This document shows, piece by piece, positions 20,500-57,373 of a stretch of 64,000 nucleotides of DNA (position 1 is its first letter; every line of letters begins with the position of its first letter). The notes beneath the pieces are model-generated. The model was given only the letters and a program-made list of their open reading frames with translations. It ran no database searches and was not told the origin of the DNA. The position numbers were made by a program, and so were the translations under genes. The stretch comes from Escherichia coli (GTDB lineage: Bacteria; Pseudomonadota; Gammaproteobacteria; Enterobacterales; Enterobacteriaceae), in the NCBI RefSeq assembly GCF_044324875.1, contig NZ_CP172185.1, one strand, 5' to 3'.

Positions 20500-20610
20500 T
20501 GGCCTACGCTCTCGCACCGACTTGTAGGCCTGATAAGACGTGTTAAGCGTCGCATCAGGCAATGTGCACCCTACGGTGGATGCGGCGCGAGTGCCTTATC
20601 CAACCTACGG
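20500..20610. repeat. REP-type palindromic elements at the yiaT side of the accessory locus
   Basis: gtaggcctgataagacgtgttaagcgtcgcatcaggc and ggatgcggcgcgagtgccttatcc units. Confidence 0.6.
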
Positions 20611-22575
20611 ATGGCAATGCTTTTCCTCATTCACCCAGATCCGCATTTCGCCTTCACCCCGGTTGGCCCAGCTAAACCACGGGATAAACGTCAGAATTTG
20701 CGGCTGGCGTTTGGCTGGCGCGCTGTCGTAATGCCACAGCGGTTGCTGCTCTGGATTGCTCTGTTCATACCGGTAACCCGGTGCCTGGATTAAGATCTTA
20801 TGGCTGAACAATCCCTTACCTTCAAATGTCGTAAATGGCGCATCGGCGGGCAGCCACAGGTTATGCAGTGACTCGCCGTTGTCGGCCTGTTCCAGGCAAT
20901 ACACCAGCGGGCCGCGCTGAATCGCCACTTTTCCGGCGACGTGACGCACCAGAGGGTTACCGTAAACGCGGCGTACCGGCATCGGCAAAGTCAGATTCAG
21001 CGTATCGCCCTCCTGCCATTCGCGGGTAATGTGCAAATACCCTTTACGAATATCCTGCTCGACCTCTTCCCCATTCAATATGATCTGCGGCTGTGTGCAC
21101 CAGTCCGGCAGACGTAAAGCCAGCGTATGACGCACCGGCTGGGGCGATTCAACCGCAATTGTCACCTGTTCCTGCCACGGATAGTTCCCGCTAACCCGCA
21201 GGCGCAACGTGCCATTTTCTACCGGCACTTCCATGCTGTTTCCTGCGTAGATGTTGATATACAACGCATCTTCACGCGGCGTGTAGAGATAATGACCAAT
21301 CGAGGTCAGTACGCGGGCGATATTTGGCGGACAACAAGCGCAGCCAAACCAACGCTGGCGGAGCGGTTTAACGTGATCGTAGATATGGTTGAATTTCAGC
21401 GATTTTGGATGTACTTCCAGCGGATTCACATAGAAGAAATGTTTGCCATCCAGTGCCATGCCGCCGAGCACAGTGTTGTACAGCGCGCGCTCCATCACAT
21501 CGGCATATTGACTGTCGCCTTCCATTTCCAGCATTCGCCGGGCAAACATCATCAGGCCGATGGAGGCGCAACTTTCAGCGTATACCGTGTCATTCGGCAG
21601 ATCGTAATCGCTGCTGAACGCTTCACCGCTGCTTTGTGAGCCAATGCCGCCGGTAATATATAACTGACGCTGGGCCATATTGTTCCACAGCCGCAGGCAA
21701 TCCTGACGCTTGCTTTCATCGTGACTTAAACGCGCCAGATGTGCGACGCCAGTCATCAGGTAGACAAAGCGTACTGCATGTCCGATGGCGGTTTGTTGCT
21801 GTGCGATGGGCAAATGCGCCTGGCTGTAGGCTTTATCTTTCACCATCCACGCCGGGCCGTAGGTGTGCCAGTGCGAGGTCTGCCCGCGCTTTTCATATTC
21901 CTGGTCGTAATAGTGCGGTTGCGCACCACGCTGTTCGACAAAATAGTTCGTCAGCGCCAGGTAGCGCGGCTCTTCGGTCACTTCATACAGGCGCATTAGT
22001 GCCAGTTCAATTTCCGGGTGACCAGGATAACCGTGTAACTTACTTTCACCTGGACCAAATACGCTGTCGATATGATCGGCCAGACGGCAAACCACTTCCA
22101 GCAAGCGCCGCTTGCCCGTGGCCTGGAAGAAGGCGACTCCGGCTTCAATCAGATGACCGGCGCAGTAAAGTTCATGACACTCCGCCAGATTGCTCCAGCG
22201 TTCTTCGGGCGCTTTTACCGTAAAGTAAGTATTGAGATAGCCATCTTCGCACTGGGCGGAGGCGATCAGTTCAATCACCTCGTCAGCAGTTTTTTCCAGT
22301 TCGGCATCCGGCTTCTGGCACAGCGACCAGGCTACCGCTTCCAGCCATTTGGCGACGTCGCTGTCCTGAAACACCATCCCGTAAAATTCACCGTCTTGCA
22401 GTCCTGCGGCAATGCGAAAGTTTTCAATCGCATGGCTGGGTTCCGCTTCTGGGATACGATCGTTCAAGGCGTCCCACTGATAAGGAATCACCACATCGCG
22501 GACCAGTTGTTGGTACTGACCGAGGAACGGATCGCTGACCGTCAGTTTATGCAGATCGACTTCCGAAATGTTCAT
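20605..22575 (-). CDS. Glycoside hydrolase, GH127-like (DUF1680; beta-L-arabinofuranosidase-type)
   Basis: Track ORF trimmed to ATG 22573-22575, preceded by TAAGGAG SD that overlaps the upstream transporter stop; 656 aa; Cys-rich motif WFGCACCPPN typical of the family. Confidence 0.75.
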   Translation of the reverse strand: MNISEVDLHKLTVSDPFLGQYQQLVRDVVIPYQWDALNDRIPEAEPSHAIENFRIAAGLQDGEFYGMVFQDSDVAKWLEAVAWSLCQKPDAELEKTADEVIELIASAQCEDGYLNTYFTVKAPEERWSNLAECHELYCAGHLIEAGVAFFQATGKRRLLEVVCRLADHIDSVFGPGESKLHGYPGHPEIELALMRLYEVTEEPRYLALTNYFVEQRGAQPHYYDQEYEKRGQTSHWHTYGPAWMVKDKAYSQAHLPIAQQQTAIGHAVRFVYLMTGVAHLARLSHDESKRQDCLRLWNNMAQRQLYITGGIGSQSSGEAFSSDYDLPNDTVYAESCASIGLMMFARRMLEMEGDSQYADVMERALYNTVLGGMALDGKHFFYVNPLEVHPKSLKFNHIYDHVKPLRQRWFGCACCPPNIARVLTSIGHYLYTPREDALYINIYAGNSMEVPVENGTLRLRVSGNYPWQEQVTIAVESPQPVRHTLALRLPDWCTQPQIILNGEEVEQDIRKGYLHITREWQEGDTLNLTLPMPVRRVYGNPLVRHVAGKVAIQRGPLVYCLEQADNGESLHNLWLPADAPFTTFEGKGLFSHKILIQAPGYRYEQSNPEQQPLWHYDSAPAKRQPQILTFIPWFSWANRGEGEMRIWVNEEKHCHP

Positions 22576-22585
22576 CTTGTGCTCC

Positions 22586-23986
22586 TTAAGGCTGTACATG
22601 ACGCTGACGCAGGTCGCTAGCAATGCGTGACATCATAGGGTTATTGAGTTTGCAAAAGCGGATCGCCATCGCCAGCAGCAGGTGGAATAGCGCAGGCAGC
22701 AATGTTTCCATTGCTGTGATCCCGCCAAGCGAACTGGCGGTCTGGTTTTCCACGCCTGGCTGGTAGGCGACAAAAATAAACAGCAGGCTGATGATCCCGG
22801 CGCTGGAGGCCCAGGCCAGCTTGATGAAAAACAGATTGAAGGCGAAGTTCATGCCGGAAGAACGTACGCGGGTTTTCCACTCGCCGTAGTCATCGGCAAA
22901 GGCCATCAATGAGAAGTGCAGTGGCAATGTGAAGCCAAGAATCACGCCATTACCGAGGATCACCGCCAGCCACAGCGTTTGATAAGCCGGGCCAGAGGGC
23001 AGGAACCACATCAACACCGCCAGCGCAGCGAGGAGCAGGTTGGTGTAGTAGTAAATTTTGACGGTATCGAAACGCCGCGTTAATGGGCTGACAATCACCG
23101 AGCCGATAATGGAGGCGAAGGTGACCATGGTGAAGAACAGCGACGTGTAGCCCGTACTGCCTTGTAAGACGTAGGTAATGAAGTACATATACCCACCGCC
23201 GCGAATATTAAAGACGTTAATCAGCAGGAAAGACATGACCAGCATCAGCAGCAGTTGGTCGTTGTTTCGCAGCCCGGCAAGATGTTCGCGCAGGGTAAAT
23301 TTCCCCATTGTGGAGAGTGGTACCCGTTCACGAACCCAGAAGAAACAGCACAGGAACATCACCACAGCGATGGCGCACAGCACGCCGACGCCCAGTTGAT
23401 AGCCGCGCGCGGCATTACCCTGACCGAAGAGATCCACCATCCACGGTAAGCCTACCGAAACCAGAAATCCCGCTACACCGCAGAGAACGAATCGCCAGGA
23501 CTGGCAGGAGATCACTTCATTGTGGCGGGTGGTCATGGTGTTGATCAGCGCGCAGTACGGCACGTTGATGGCGGTATAACCGACTGAAAGGAGCAGGTAA
23601 GTGCCGAACGCCCAGGCGATTTTTACTCCCATGCTGGCATCTGGCACGGTGAACGTCAGGATGCCGATAATGCCGATGGGAATGGCAATCCATAACTGCC
23701 ACGGACGAAAGCGCCCCCAGTGACTTTGCGTCCGGTCGGCAATGACGCCCATCACCGGGTCGGAGATGGCATCAAACACGCGCAGTGCAATAAACAGCGT
23801 GCCGACCAGCGCCGGAGTTAAGCCAAAAACGTCGGTGTAGAAAAAGGTGAGAAAGTTCATGATCAGGCAAGTTATTACGGTGCCGCCTGCGTCACCCAGG
23901 CCGTAGCCTATTTTTTCCCGTACAGATAACGCATCGTCAATTTTACCTTTAGCGATATCAGCGGTAGTAATCGGTGTAGAGGTCAT
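22586..23986 (-). CDS. Glycoside-pentoside-hexuronide (GPH) family cation symporter
   Basis: 466-aa ORF, about 12 TM segments, motifs GYGLGDAG and [14 protein letters not shown]. Confidence 0.85.
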
Positions 23987-24211
23987 AGATATTCCTCGTA
24001 AATAGGGAGCAATTTTTAGTTTTATTGCAATGACCTGATTAATTCTGCCGTGAACGGGAATATCAACAAGGCGAGAAAAGAGTAAAAAAAGGTGACGATT
24101 CCGACCTGAATTTAAAAGTGTGAATTGGATCAGGTGAAATTAATGTTTTTGATTAATAATCAAAAGGTAATGTGTTTGATCATTAATGAATAAGCGGGAA
24201 ATTACATATCA

Positions 24212-25027
24212 ATGCTCGAATTATCCATGACGTTACCGATTAAAGTGCAAAATGGTGGATTATTTATTTCCCGTGGCGTAGGGAGGCATCCGGCAAGGCG
24301 GCTGGAGTCATGGGAAATTATCTTTGTCGAAAAAGGTCGATTAGCGATTCAGGAAGAAGAGCGGATATTTCTGGTCGATGCGGGAGAGAGTTTATTACTC
24401 TGGCCGAACCGACAGCATGTTGGGGTAGAGGATTTTCCCGCCGATCTCAAATTTTACTGGCTGCATTTTGAGGTTAAAGCGCCGGACAACGACCCGCGCT
24501 GGCTCACTCATCTTAGCGTGCCGCAACAAACAAAGGTTGCCGATCGGCAGGCGCTGGTGGCCCTGTTTCGCCAGTTCTTAAGCGAACAGGAAAAGCATCA
24601 ACGCACTCCGGCGCTGGAGTTTATTGTGCTGCTGATTTTGCAGCAACTCACCCGTGACGCGCGTCTTGATGAACAGGCCGATGCCGCAGGTACCACGCTT
24701 GCCTGGAAAGCGCAGAAACTGATCCGCACGCAATATCATCGCCCGCTTTCCACGGCGCTTTTAGCCCGCGAGCTGTACTGCAATGCCGATTATCTTGGGC
24801 GCGTCTACCGGCGGGTGTTTCATCTGACGTTAACAGAAGCAATTCATCGCCAGCGAGTGCGCGAAGCCGAAAAGCTGTTAATTAGCGAAGCGCGATCGCT
24901 CACTGAAGTGGCTGCGTTGTGCGGGTTTAATGACGTTGGCTATTTCCGACAGATTTTTCGCAAACACACCGGTTTAACGCCAGCTGCGTGGAAGCGACGT
25001 TACAGCAAGGAACATATCAATTCGTAG
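24212..25027 (+). CDS. AraC/XylS-family transcriptional regulator (cupin sensor plus HTH)
   Basis: 271-aa ORF divergent from the symporter; C-terminal HTH region (TEVAALCGFNDVGYFRQIFRKHTG). Confidence 0.85.
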   Translation: MLELSMTLPIKVQNGGLFISRGVGRHPARRLESWEIIFVEKGRLAIQEEERIFLVDAGESLLLWPNRQHVGVEDFPADLKFYWLHFEVKAPDNDPRWLTHLSVPQQTKVADRQALVALFRQFLSEQEKHQRTPALEFIVLLILQQLTRDARLDEQADAAGTTLAWKAQKLIRTQYHRPLSTALLARELYCNADYLGRVYRRVFHLTLTEAIHRQRVREAEKLLISEARSLTEVAALCGFNDVGYFRQIFRKHTGLTPAAWKRRYSKEHINS

Positions 25028-25058: not shown

Positions 25059-25754
25059 TTACTGCCCGTAATAGGCATTGGCCCCATGCTTACGCAGGTA
25101 GTGCTTATCTAACAGTTCGTTTTGCATCGCAGGGAGCTGCGGCGCAAGCTGACGCGAGAACAGGCCCATATAGGCACACTCTTCCAGCACCACGGCGTTA
25201 TGCACTGCATCGGCGGCATTTTTTCCCCAGGCGAACGGGCCGTGAGAATGTACCAGAACCGCCGGGATTTGCGCTGGACTCCTGCCGCGTTCTTCGAGGG
25301 TTTCAATGATCACTTCGCCAGTCTGGTATTCATACTCGCCGTTGATCTCTTCTGCGGTCATCAGGCGCGTGCAGGGGATGGCTCCATAGAAGTAATCGGC
25401 GTGCGTGGTGCCCCAGGCGGGGAGATCCAGCCCGGCCTGTGACCAGATGGTCGCGTGGCGCGAGTGGGTATGCACAATGCCACCGATTTCGGCATAGCGA
25501 CGGTAGAGCGCCAGATGCGTTGGCGTGTCGGACGAGGGCTTTTTGCTGCCTTCCACCCCCTTACCGCTGGCTATCTCAACCACCACCATATCGTCGGCGG
25601 TCATCACGTCGTACTCGACGCCGGAAGGTTTGATTACCATCCATTGCCGCGTTTCGTCTACCGCGCTGACATTGCCCCAGGTGAACGTCACCAGATGGTG
25701 AGCGGGAAGCGCCAGATTCGCCGCCAGCACGTCGGCTTTCAGTTGCTCTAACAT
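25059..25754 (-). CDS. sgbE: L-ribulose-5-phosphate 4-epimerase
   Basis: 231-aa [33 protein letters not shown]..., class II aldolase/epimerase fold. Confidence 0.95.
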
Positions 25755-26608
25755 ATAAATCCAGCCTCCTGCATACGCGCTTCAATCCAGCGCCGCGCCT
25801 GAATAATCTCCAGCACCGGCTCTTTGGCTTTTTCGGTCCACATCTCAATCAGGAAAGAACCGCGATAGTTCAGTTCATGCAGCGTTTTGAAGATGCCAAC
25901 GAAATCGACGCAGCCTTCGCCAAACGGCACATCACGGAACTGTCCGGGACTTTGCTCGGTGACTGGCCGGGTGTCTTTCAGGTGGATTGCGGCAATACGG
26001 TCAATGCCCAGTTTCAGTTCGGCGGAAACATCATTGCCCCAGGCGCTGAGGTTGCCGACGTCCGGGTAGACGGTGAACCACGGCGAGGCGAGCATCTCGT
26101 CCCACTTTTTCCATTTGCTGATGGAGTTCATAAACGCGGTATCCATAATCTCCACCGCCAGCATTACTTGTGATGCCGCCGCCTGTTCGACCGCCCACGC
26201 CAGCCCTTCAGCAAAACGTTGCTGGGTGCCTTCGTCGTGGTCTTCGTAATAGACGTCATAACCCGCCAGTTGAATGGTGCGAATGCCGAGATCGCGCGCC
26301 AGGCGAATCGCTTTACTCATGATTTCCCGCGCCCGTTCGCGCACCGCCTTGTCCCGGCTGCCAAAGGGGAAACGACGATGGGCAGACAGGCACATTGACG
26401 GAATGGCAACACCCGTTTCGATCATCGCAGTGACCAGCGAAGCACGTTGTGCGGCGCTCCAGTCAAGGCGTGACAAACGTTCGTCAGTTTCATCCACCGA
26501 CATTTCGACAAAATCAAAACCGCAGCTTTTCGCCAGCACCAGCCGCTCGGGCCAGGAGAGATCTTTCGCCAGCGCTTTTTCATAAACTCCTAACGGATGA
26601 TTACGCAC
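25748..26608 (-). CDS. sgbU: L-xylulose-5-phosphate 3-epimerase
   Basis: Track ORF starts at a far-upstream TTG; likely start is GTG at 26606-26608 preceded by GGGGAGG SD, giving 286 aa [15 protein letters not shown]... Confidence 0.85.
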
Positions 26609-27263
26609 GCGCGCCTCCCCAGATGGCATCAATTTGCGCATGAAAATCAGCGGCCACTTGCGCCGGATTTGCTGCGCCTGCCAGCGCCCGCCCGGCAATA
26701 AACGCTTTCACGCGGATATCTTTAAACAGCGGCAGGTCAGCAGGGGTAATCCCGCCGGTAATGGAAAGCTCAAGGCCGATATCGGAAAGTGCCTTCATGC
26801 GTGCCAGATCGGCTTCGCCCCACTGTTGCCCGCTGGCTTGCGCGTCACGACCGCGATGATAAATGGCCTGCCGCACGCCAATACGATGCCAGTCGCGGGC
26901 GTCGTCCAGCGTCCAGTTACCGAACAGCTCTATCTGAATTTCACCACCGCAGCGTTGCGCCATCGCGTGGCCTTTTTCCACCGTCGCGAGCGGCGCGGCG
27001 CAGATGATGGTCATCCAGTTGGCACCCGCGCCAAACGCCTGTTGCGCGAGCGTTTCACCCGCGTCGGCGACCTTCCAGTCAGCAACGATGATTTTATCCG
27101 GGCATTGTTCGCGTAAGGCTTTCACCGCGCCAAGCCCTTCGTTTAAACAGAGAATGGTGCCTGCTTCGACGATATCGACGCTGTCTTTTAACAGCGTCAC
27201 GTCGCGCTGTGCGTCTTCAAGTGATGAGTGGTCGAGGGCCAGTTGCAGAAGTGGTCGGCTCAT
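26601..27263 (-). CDS. sgbH: 3-keto-L-gulonate-6-phosphate decarboxylase
   Basis: 220-aa [24 protein letters not shown]..., OMP-decarboxylase-like. Confidence 0.95.
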
Positions 27264-28756
27264 AATGTGTGCTCCTTGATGCGGGCGTGAAAGCCCTGAA
27301 GTGCGGCAATGAGATGCTGATAGCGTTGGTATTTTTGTTGGTAAAGCTGATGTGCGGTCATATCCGGCAGCAGGGTGCGTACCGGGTGCTGTAAATCACG
27401 TTGGGCTTCGCTGAAATCGCGATAAACTCCGGTGCCGACGCGGGCGGCAAGTGCCGCACCAAAGCAGCCGGTTTCTTCCACCTGCGGCAGTTCGATACGC
27501 AGCCCGCTGACGTCCGCCAGCATTTGCATCCAGACATCGGAATGCGCCGGGCCGCCAGTGACGCGCAGGGTGTGCACATCAGTAAAACGTTCGCGCATCC
27601 GGTTGAGATGGGTCATATGGCTGAACACCACGCCTTCATAAATGGCCTGCAACAGGTGTGCGCGGGTGTGAATGGCCTGCATCCCGTAGAAACCGCTGGT
27701 CATCTCGAGTCCGGCGTTGCTGCCGTACAGGAACGGCAGGAAAAAGAGATCGCCCCCGGCCTTTGGCAAGCTGGCAACGGCCTGGTTAATCTCATCAAAC
27801 GAGATTTCTCCCCACTGTGCGGTAAACCATTCGAGGTTGCCGGAAGAGGTGGGGCTGGCTTCGTGAACGATAAATTGACCATCGTTAACGTAGCGACCAT
27901 AGACATACGGATGCGCTTCACCGTCACGTAAACCACGGGTTATGCCGCTGGTCACCGCCCAGGTTCCCATCACCGCATTGAGGGTGAATTCGTCTTCGAT
28001 CCCGGCGCAGAGTGCGGTGGAAACCACATCAAACAGGCCGCCGACAACGGGCGTACCCGCTTTCAGACCGGTCAGTGCGGCTGTCTGAGCGGTGATCTCC
28101 CCGCAGATTTCGGCAGATCCGACAACAGGCGGCAGGGCGTGGTTGATTTCAGCGATCCCCAGCCAGTCGGTGAGGCACGGGTCATATTCCCCAAGACTCA
28201 TGTTGTAGAGATTGGACTCAGAAATATTGCTCTCTTCGCAACCTTTGACGCCGGTTAAACACCAGCGCAGGTAGTCGTGCGTCATCATCACGCAGCCAAT
28301 TTGCGCGTAGCGTTCCGGTTCGTGCTCTTTCAGCCAGCGTAATAGCGACACCGGATGCCCGGTCCACAAGGTTTGTCGCGTCAGCGGGTAGAGTTTTTCC
28401 GGGATGCCATCTTCCTGCCAGCGACGAACGATTTCCATCGCCCGGCGATCCGAGGACAAAATGGCGTTACCGAGCGGCTTGTCGTTTTTATCCAGCAAAA
28501 ACAAGCCCTTTCCCTGTGCGGAGATGCCGATACCGACTATTTGTTCCCCGCTAACACCAGAATGAGTAAGCAGGGGGCGAATGACAGCCATGCAGCATTG
28601 CCACAGTTCTGCCATATCGCGCTCTGCCCAGCCTGGCTGCGGGCTTAATGCGCACAGCGGCAGGCGTTGTACGCCTGCCTCCCGGCCTTCGCGGTCATAC
28701 AGCCCGGCTTTCAGCCAGCTACCGCCACAATCTAACCCCAGCCAGTATTGCGTCAT
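27260..28756 (-). CDS. lyxK: L-xylulose / 3-keto-L-gulonate kinase
   Basis: 498-aa ORF, FGGY sugar kinase signature (MTQYWLGLDCGGSWLKAGLYD). Confidence 0.95.
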   Translation of the reverse strand: MTQYWLGLDCGGSWLKAGLYDREGREAGVQRLPLCALSPQPGWAERDMAELWQCCMAVIRPLLTHSGVSGEQIVGIGISAQGKGLFLLDKNDKPLGNAILSSDRRAMEIVRRWQEDGIPEKLYPLTRQTLWTGHPVSLLRWLKEHEPERYAQIGCVMMTHDYLRWCLTGVKGCEESNISESNLYNMSLGEYDPCLTDWLGIAEINHALPPVVGSAEICGEITAQTAALTGLKAGTPVVGGLFDVVSTALCAGIEDEFTLNAVMGTWAVTSGITRGLRDGEAHPYVYGRYVNDGQFIVHEASPTSSGNLEWFTAQWGEISFDEINQAVASLPKAGGDLFFLPFLYGSNAGLEMTSGFYGMQAIHTRAHLLQAIYEGVVFSHMTHLNRMRERFTDVHTLRVTGGPAHSDVWMQMLADVSGLRIELPQVEETGCFGAALAARVGTGVYRDFSEAQRDLQHPVRTLLPDMTAHQLYQQKYQRYQHLIAALQGFHARIKEHTL

Positions 28757-35723: not shown

Positions 35724-35822
35724 GCCGGATGCGGCTAAAACGCCTTATCCGGCCTACAAATTCTACCAAATTCAATATATTGCAGAAATCATGTAGGCCT
35801 GATAAGCGTAGCGCATCAGGCA
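35724..35822. repeat. REP-type palindromic elements between ysaA and avtA
   Basis: gccggatgcggctaaaacgccttatccggcctac ... gtaggcctgataagcgtagcgcatcaggc. Confidence 0.6.
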
Positions 35823-54421: not shown

Positions 54422-54673
54422 CGCTAAATAATAGAGCAACCTTTAATAATCTTCTGCTGAATAAAGATTGTCTCATATATTAATTTTATGAGATTTTTTT
54501 AGGATTATATCAAGGAGAAGAAACGAACTTATTAAGCTAGAATAGCCACGGGTGCTTGAGACTGTTTGTCTCAGGTATTCACCGAAAGGCAGACAGAGAA
54601 AAGCCCCACCTGACTATAAATCAAAGTGTACTGCACCCATTTTGTTGGACGATGAAATGGAATAGCCCCTGAT

Positions 54674-55195
54674 ATGTCAAAGCCAAAATACCCTTTTGAA
54701 AAGCGCCTTGAAGTCGTGAATCACTACTTCACTACTGATGATGGTTACAGGATCATCTCGGCACGTTTTGGTGTCCCCCGAACCCAGGTCAGGACATGGG
54801 TTGCCCTCTATGAAAAACATGGAGAAAAAGGTTTAATTCCCAAACCTAAAGGTGTTAGTGCTGATCCTGAGTTGCGTATTAAGGTCGTGAAAGCTGTGAT
54901 CGAGCAGCACATGTCCCTTAATCAGGCTGCTGCTCACTTTATGCTTGCTGGTAGTGGTTCTGTAGCCAGGTGGCTGAAGGTTTATGAAGAGCGCGGAGAA
55001 GCTGGTTTACGCGCGCTCAAGATTGGCACCAAAAGAAACATTGCAATATCAGTTGATCCAGAAAAAGCGGCATCAGCATTGGAGCTGTCAAAAGACCGAC
55101 GCATTGAGGATCTTGAAAGGCAAGTTCGATTTCTTGAAACGCGGCTTGTGTATCTAAAAAAGCTGAAAGCCTTAGCTCATCCCACGAAAAAGTGA
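54674..55195 (+). CDS. insJ: IS150 transposase OrfA (HTH)
   Basis: 173-aa ORF MSKPKYPFEKRLEVVNHYF...; slippery heptamer A-AAA-AAG at 55156-55162 in frame near its 3-prime end. Confidence 0.9.
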   Translation: MSKPKYPFEKRLEVVNHYFTTDDGYRIISARFGVPRTQVRTWVALYEKHGEKGLIPKPKGVSADPELRIKVVKAVIEQHMSLNQAAAHFMLAGSGSVARWLKVYEERGEAGLRALKIGTKRNIAISVDPEKAASALELSKDRRIEDLERQVRFLETRLVYLKKLKALAHPTKK

Positions 55196-56455: not shown

Positions 56456-56827
56456 ATGAATAAACTGCTTTTACTGTTGATAATGCTCTATCAACGACAT
56501 CTTTCTCCTCGCAAAGGATACCGCTGTGCTTACAGTGTGTTGTACCAAACGCAGGGATGTTCGGGAGCAGTCAAAGAGATTATTCAACAGAAAGGTGTTA
56601 TTGCAGGCTGGGGCGAGATACGTCAGCGTTTTGCAGATTGCCGACTTGCGGCACAGACAATCAGGCAGAAGCAACACCTGAACGAGGTAATACGTAAAAA
56701 GAAGAATAATAATTGTGATTGTTCCGGGTGCGATGGTGCGGTCTGTCGTGATTGCGACATTCCGGTGCCGGATCTGGATTGTTCCTGGGACTGTTCTTCT
56801 CTACATATAAAGCGTTTTTTCCAATAA
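56456..56827 (+). CDS. YidD-like (DUF37/hemolytic domain) protein with Cys-rich C-terminal tail
   Basis: 123-aa ORF; N-terminal LYQRHLSP...C...KGVIAGWGEIRQRFADC resembles the YidD family pattern; C-terminal CDCSGCDGAVCRDCD cluster. Confidence 0.5.
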   Translation: MNKLLLLLIMLYQRHLSPRKGYRCAYSVLYQTQGCSGAVKEIIQQKGVIAGWGEIRQRFADCRLAAQTIRQKQHLNEVIRKKKNNNCDCSGCDGAVCRDCDIPVPDLDCSWDCSSLHIKRFFQ

Positions 56828-56852
56828 AAAAATCCCCGCCAAATGGCAGGGA
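56826..56852 (-). terminator. Rho-independent terminator of cspA
   Basis: On the minus strand: stem tccctgcc / ggcgggga followed by ttttttt, about 30 nt after the cspA stop. Confidence 0.55.
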
Positions 56853-56880
56853 TCTTAGATTCTGTGCTTTTAAGCAGAGA

Positions 56881-57093
56881 TTACAGGCTGGTTACGTTAC
56901 CAGCTGCCGGGCCTTTAGCGCCGCTTTCGATGGTGAAGGACACTTTCTGACCTTCGTCCAGAGATTTGTAACCATCGTTCTGGATAGCAGAGAAGTGTAC
57001 GAACACGTCTTTAGAGCCATCGTCAGGAGTGATGAAGCCGAAGCCTTTGTCAGCGTTGAACCATTTTACGATACCAGTCATTTTACCGGACAT
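56881..57093 (-). CDS. cspA: Major cold-shock protein CspA
   Basis: 70 aa [38 protein letters not shown] with RNP1/RNP2 motifs. Confidence 0.95.
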
Positions 57094-57373
57094 AGTGTAT
57101 TACCTTTAATAATTAAGTGTGCCTTTCGGCGATATGGCGTGCTTTACAGATTTTGAAGCGTTAAAGGAATGTGCACTACGAGGGGTATCAACGATAACTC
57201 TTGAAGGGACTTGCCTTACTACACTGCTTTAATGGTCTGTACGTCAAACCGTTGATGTGCATTAAGCCACGCATTGGCGGGTGATGCAACAATTATTTTT
57301 CATATTTATGATTAATCGGTTGGAAAACGGTCCTGTCATCAGGACCGTAAACAGCAATAAAGTGGATAAAAGT

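Follow-up and report, generated by a model that had tools for sequence, protein, structure and literature searches.

A GTG codon overlapping the sgbH stop is the probable start of sgbU in the Escherichia coli yia-sgb operon

Large-scale surveys of short gene overlaps rank the −8 class third, behind −4 and −1, and overlaps of phase 2 are reported to occur several times less often than those of phase 1, to which −8 belongs (PMC10666635). A stop-to-start distance of −8 to +6 nt is taken as indicative of termination-reinitiation, which in experiments on native E. coli gene pairs worked efficiently only when stop and start lay very close together (PMC10666635). The closest described relative of the gene considered here is sgbU of E. 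coli K-12 MG1655 (b3582, yiaR, NP_418039.2, 3749232..3750092), a member of the yiaK-S operon that encodes a putative L-xylulose/L-ribulose 5-phosphate 3-epimerase. In the literature on sgbU, yiaR/yiaQ/yiaS and sgbH/sgbE/lyxK we found no report on the N-terminus of SgbU, and sgbU is absent from the TRAINSPOTTER N-terminomics supplements. Here we analysed a 64,000-nt stretch of E. coli DNA (contig NZ_CP172185.1; hereafter the window), in which sgbU is the same gene as in K-12, at the same chromosomal position; it likewise measures 861 nt, begins with GTG and shares 8 nt with sgbH. Nine RefSeq records, including that of K-12 MG1655, carry sgbU as a gene of 861 nt whose start lies inside sgbH, 8 nt from its end (PGAP). 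The features of the locus, all on the minus strand, are as follows.

27260..28756, minus strand: lyxK coding sequence, with a 4-nt ATGA overlap with sgbH
26601..27263, minus strand: sgbH coding sequence, 220 aa (PGAP label ulaD/sgbH); its last 8 nt overlap sgbU
26698..26696, minus strand: far-upstream TTG that opens the mechanical 316-aa ORF; not the start
26641..26639, minus strand: upstream ATG, 297 aa if used; SD absent (−3.9 kcal/mol), judged not the start
26629..26627, minus strand: upstream ATG, 293 aa if used; SD absent (−2.4 kcal/mol), not the start
26620..26614, minus strand: Shine-Dalgarno (SD) sequence GGGGAGG, within the sgbH codons Trp-Gly-Gly
26613..26609, minus strand: spacer CGCGC, 5 nt from SD to GTG, read directly
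26608..26606, minus strand: GTG initiation codon of sgbU, read directly; the annotated start in nine RefSeq E. coli records
26603..26601, minus strand: TAA stop of sgbH, falling in sgbU codons 2-3 (CGT AAT)
25748..26608, minus strand: sgbU coding sequence, 286 aa plus stop as translated from the GTG; L-ribulose-5-phosphate 3-epimerase family
25059..25754, minus strand: sgbE coding sequence, with a 7-nt ATGTTAG overlap with sgbU; its SD, GGAGG, lies in the 3′ end of sgbU (−11.3 kcal/mol)

The sgbH frame ends in ATC TGG GGA GGC GCG CGT GCG TAA (I-W-G-G-A-R-A-stop), and the sgbU frame opens, one base out of phase with it, as GTG CGT AAT CAT CCG TTA GGA GTT TAT GAA. The two genes share the 8 nt GTGCGTAA, exactly 26601-26608; the GTG stands 5 nt ahead of the sgbH stop codon and the overlap is of phase 1. 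The initial annotation had placed the probable start at a GTG at 26606-26608, preceded by GGGGAGG at 5-nt spacing and giving a product of 286 aa, and had noted that the listed ORF begins at a far-upstream TTG inside sgbH. On direct reading these coordinates proved exact: translation from 26608 to 25748 yields 286 aa, and the listed ORF opens at TTG 26698 and is 316 aa long. The overlaps of 4-8 bp that it described along lyxK-sgbH-sgbU-sgbE measure 4, 8 and 7 nt, and are the same in RefSeq and in K-12.

To score SD pairing, the 18 nt upstream of every ATG, GTG and TTG on both strands of the window were matched to the 3′ end of 16S rRNA. The duplex energy at GTG 26608 is −11.3 kcal/mol, a value reached by 39 of the 6056 start-like triplets (top 0.64% in the window), and a GGAGG 4-14 nt upstream is found for 11/6056. 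At these rates the pairing at the sgbU GTG is beyond chance. Among the in-frame ATG, GTG and TTG candidates of sgbU it is also the only strong SD, the others being TTG 26698 (−4.0 kcal/mol), ATG 26641 (−3.9), TTG 26632 (−2.6) and ATG 26629 (−2.4).

The gene order yiaK-L-M-N-O-lyxK-sgbH-sgbU-sgbE beside the divergent yiaJ is found in the near-identical NZ_CP076709.1 and in K-12, and the ORFs of the window match it; by gene order the locus belongs to the yiaK-S (yia-sgb) operon. A gap of 3 nt separates yiaO from lyxK, and the surrounding order is xyl-yiaJ-yiaK..sgbE-yiaT-aldB-selAB-mtl. A 3.8-kb block of the locus matches 5203 of 5426 complete genomes, the best at 98.6%. The sgbU/sgbE overlap of 7 nt (25748..25754) is of phase 2, and the −7 register recurs in K-12, Kluyvera, Mangrovibacter, Budvicia and Hafnia.

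Several further features of the window were recorded. Between sgbE and yiaT (20503..24923) lie, intact, genes for an AraC-family regulator (24212..25027, plus strand), an MFS/GPH transporter (22586..23986, minus strand) and a GH127 glycoside hydrolase. These genes are intact in NZ_CP076709.1 too; K-12 is without window positions 20903..24923 and 20503..20712, and what is left there at the edges of the AraC and GH127 genes are the pseudogenes ysaC and ysaD. Three Rfam matches at gathering level, the cspA thermoregulator (56826..57253, minus strand, 501 bits), the sok antitoxin RNA (54550..54703, plus strand, 86 bits) and, barely over threshold, the ES036 sRNA (35758..35800, plus strand, 38.9 bits), are all expected for this E. 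coli region. The plus-strand antisense ORFs at 26274..26585 and 26634..27116 were dismissed as mechanical shadows of the coding strand.

The family profiles mark the same N-terminus. We scanned the 316-aa mechanical ORF with NCBIfam profiles; TIGR00542 scored 518.9 bits (cut-off 272.15) over profile positions 1-279 of 279, and NF009689 scored 508.6 bits (cut-off 200) over positions 2-285 of 286. By curated score and full-length coverage SgbU is thus a member of the L-ribulose-5-phosphate 3-epimerase family (SgbU/UlaE). Position 1 of TIGR00542 and position 2 of NF009689 both fall on ORF residue 32, directly after the GTG codon, which puts position 1 of NF009689 on residue 31, the GTG codon itself. 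A protein search matched SgbU at 98% identity to 286-aa clusters of E. coli SgbU, and the orthologues that it returned are almost all called at 285-286 aa. The nearest solved structure is UlaE (PDB 3CQH, E = 4.7e-107), with the alignment running from ORF residue 33. From sequence, SgbU is a putative epimerase acting on L-xylulose 5-phosphate, and the K-12 record itself labels the product 'putative'.

Within E. coli we compared eight distinct junction sequences, that of the window included; a ninth, that of strain O158:H23, does not differ from the window. All eight have the same GTG and GGGGAGG, while the spacer between them varies (CGCGC, TGCGC, CAAGC). Upstream of the GTG, amino acid changes affect 16/30 codons when read in the sgbU frame versus 6/29 in the sgbH frame; downstream, in the sgbU frame, the figures are 3/30 codons, and 12/110 over a longer stretch. 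Since upstream changes follow the sgbH frame and downstream changes follow the sgbU frame, selection on the sgbU frame appears to act only from the GTG onward.

The junction region itself (26560..26660) is markedly polymorphic: one of 5426 genomes matches it at ≥99% and most do so at 90-95%, and a 28-nt word in common with the window around the junction occurs in only 1046 genomes, most of them at 90-95% identity. Almost all of the changes lie at synonymous sites of sgbH. SgbH-SgbU fusion proteins of 457-504 aa (region 25748..27263) occur rarely, in a few isolates or contigs, apparently through separate indels or deletions or through errors of assembly. A programmed SgbH-SgbU frameshift was considered as their source and rejected: these fusions switch frame or carry deletions at four different places.

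Alignment to orthologous sgbU, the check that had been proposed with the initial annotation, places an ATG at the homologous codon in 11/11 junctions from outside E. coli, followed by R-x-H-P-L-G. The sequence MR[x]HP[L/M]GIYEKAL forms the N-terminus of SgbU in 13 named genera, with four extra residues in Hafnia only. An in-frame stop lies 8 codons upstream of the sgbU start in Kluyvera, Budvicia and Erwinia (3 of the 11 junctions), and Kluyvera, Mangrovibacter and Enterobacter ludwigii offer no alternative upstream start whatever. The stop/start register of sgbH/sgbU takes several values: −8 (E. coli and the Salmonella/Enterobacter type), −4 (Budvicia, Hafnia), −1 (Kluyvera, Mangrovibacter) and +1 or +2 (Yersinia, Erwinia tracheiphila, Enterobacter ludwigii). 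In two loci taken from protein clusters with Salmonella, Enterobacter and Klebsiella members the 8-nt overlap is kept as ATGCGTAA. Whatever the register, SgbU keeps its N-terminus, and the conserved I-W-G end of SgbH always carries a purine-rich SD.

Because all 11 of these lineages have ATG at the homologous codon, the GTG of E. coli is a derived ATG -> GTG change at a conserved start; in Escherichia the same base change also replaces His by Arg in the SgbH tail. The SD of E. coli, GGGGAGG[C/T] at −11 to −15 kcal/mol, is stronger than those of the Salmonella/Enterobacter type (GGGGAGA, −8.5; GGGGAAG, −5.7). It is conceivable, though we consider it improbable, that the Escherichia ATG -> GTG change and the stronger SD act as a compensatory pair, retuning how much SgbU is made relative to SgbH, and that a GTG found at −6 in K-12 adds a minor 288-aa isoform.

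The proposal that sgbU initiates at the GTG overlapping the sgbH stop is thus backed by the SD, the family profiles, the orthologues, the frame-specific constraint and the reference annotation. We put the probability at roughly 0.9 that SgbU, of 286 aa, starts at GTG 26608..26606 with the ribosome placed by GGGGAGG, local reinitiation after sgbH being possible. The analysis shows the anatomy of the junction, a start at a position homologous among orthologues and a constraint specific to each frame, and from these we infer that the GTG is used in the cell. The start is an ordinary one and already known, since it stands in the reference annotation.

For the way in which ribosomes reach this start, the arrangement suggests a simple route. 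The strong SD, inside the last sgbH codons, would position a ribosome at the sgbU GTG, and a ribosome ending sgbH would already be on the sgbU ribosome-binding site, where it could reinitiate locally (termination-reinitiation coupling). The junctions lyxK/sgbH (−4) and sgbU/sgbE (−7) are arranged in the same way. The sgbH-sgbU pair is co-directional, its −8 distance lies within −8 to +6, and its ribosome-binding site is inside the upstream coding sequence, as in coupled pairs. Translational coupling of sgbH and sgbU is therefore plausible, −8 being the third commonest overlap class, and translation of sgbU may depend on that of sgbH. The folded RNA of the 121-nt junction region is no more stable than shuffled sequences (z = 0.31), so that nothing suggests a site masked until sgbH is translated; coupling gated by structure, in which sgbH translation unmasks the site, finds no support in this fold and was rejected.

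A less probable but realistic alternative is that the GTG is indeed the start, with initiation that is independent and SD-driven and has no functional coupling to sgbH. The very strong SD at the GTG speaks for it, as does the local fold, which implies no need for unmasking, and in some genera sgbH and sgbU do not overlap at all, being separated by gaps of +1 or +2 nt. It also draws on INRI-seq, which profiles start sites in vitro on synthetic K-12 transcripts with a 30-nt leader (PMC9825163); its Table S3 places arrested ribosomes within ~14 nt of the sgbU site of the K-12 sequence when sgbH is not translated. The entries for sgbU in that table of non-annotated sites are CTG at −14 (37.0 CPM, 3/5 replicates) and GTG at −6 (35.7 CPM, 2/5 replicates), and the Ribo-RET in vivo signal given there is 0 at both (PMC9825163). 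As these peaks are assigned to codons other than the annotated GTG, they do not confirm it and count to that extent against the main reading. Table S3 is full of −14/−15 and −6/−7 calls beside annotated starts, and the codon at −6 of sgbU is GCG in the window and GTG only in K-12. We read the INRI-seq peaks as ribosome loading on the sgbU SD without sgbH translation, and not as codon-level evidence. Against fully independent initiation, the stop/start distance is kept at −8 to +2 nt in 12/12 lineages, though the exact register shifts; this falls in the range of efficient termination-reinitiation for native E. coli gene pairs (PMC10666635), and the entire lyxK-sgbE block is overlapped.

Far less probable is a start at ATG 26641..26639, 11 codons upstream of the GTG, which would give a protein of 297 aa, or some degree of use of that ATG in E. 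coli. In its favour, start codons are preferentially ATG, this one is present in 8/8 distinct E. coli junctions, and a minority of E. coli and Shigella entries in nr/RefSeq start SgbU there, at 297 aa, inconsistently with the 286-aa model used elsewhere. At −33 it also lies outside the INRI-seq constructs, with their leader of only 30 nt. Yet it has no SD, and the sgbH codons for His-Ala (CAT GCG) account for its conservation. Both Salmonella/Enterobacter-type loci have CAC in place of the CAT that forms this ATG, and in Kluyvera, Budvicia and Erwinia in-frame stops cut its position off from the gene. Of the 11 codons of the extension, 5 change amino acid within E. coli and 8 do so when the Salmonella-type loci are added, and the family profiles of SgbU do not reach it.

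A start at TTG 26698 (316 aa) or ATG 26629 (293 aa), both in frame and with no stop between them and sgbU in the window, has a negligible probability, since neither has an SD, an in-frame stop lies between TTG 26698 and the GTG in strain MFDS1019527, ATG 26629 is gone in 6 of the 7 other E. coli junctions through GAT -> GAC (synonymous in sgbH), the extension in the sgbU frame has no homology in other genera, and its codons are those that change so often upstream of the GTG (the 16/30 given above). The strain comparison effectively refutes both starts, and the 316-aa ORF is a by-product of mechanical calling, which opens each ORF at the first possible start codon that follows a stop.

With the GTG retained as the start of SgbU, the significance of the result is one of annotation hygiene only: it confirms the 286-aa model of RefSeq, of EcoCyc-style K-12 annotation and of the NCBIfam profiles, and neither the 316-aa ORF nor the 297-aa variants in nr should be propagated. 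The locus is also a small, clean example of how comparison at the level of strains and genera resolves a start codon hidden in an overlapping upstream gene.

Relative to its K-12 counterpart, the window differs at the first spacer base (26613), which is C in the window and T in K-12. The K-12 base gives an SD of GGGGAGGTG at −15.0 kcal/mol and the extra in-frame GTG two codons upstream, and the C -> T change is found in K-12 alone among the eight distinct E. coli junctions. In the K-12 protein residue 5 is Gln instead of Pro and residue 8 is Ile instead of Val; the differences between the two genes are purely allelic. The junction resembles the coupled pairs with short overlaps (−4 ATGA, −1 TAATG, −8 ATGNNTGA; Huber et al. 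2019, 2023; PMC6728339, PMC10666635) in being co-directional and within one operon, and in having its start just inside the 3′ end of the upstream gene, an 8-nt phase-1 overlap and an SD in the upstream gene (PMC6728339, PMC10666635). It differs from the −8 class string ATGNNTGA in reading GTGNNTAA, with GTG in place of ATG, and coupling at sgbH/sgbU is putative.

In the L-ascorbate (ula) operon of E. coli, ulaD-ulaE form a paralogous decarboxylase/3-epimerase gene pair. The alignment with SgbU takes in almost all of UlaE, with a conserved core from P-L-G-I-Y-E-K-A-L, and in both pairs the SD adjoins the conserved Trp-Gly at which the upstream gene ends. Unlike sgbU, however, ulaE starts with ATG and encodes two more N-terminal residues (MLSKQIPLG), and ulaD and ulaE do not overlap but are separated by a 9-nt gap, with an SD, TAAGGAG, that spans the ulaD stop codon.
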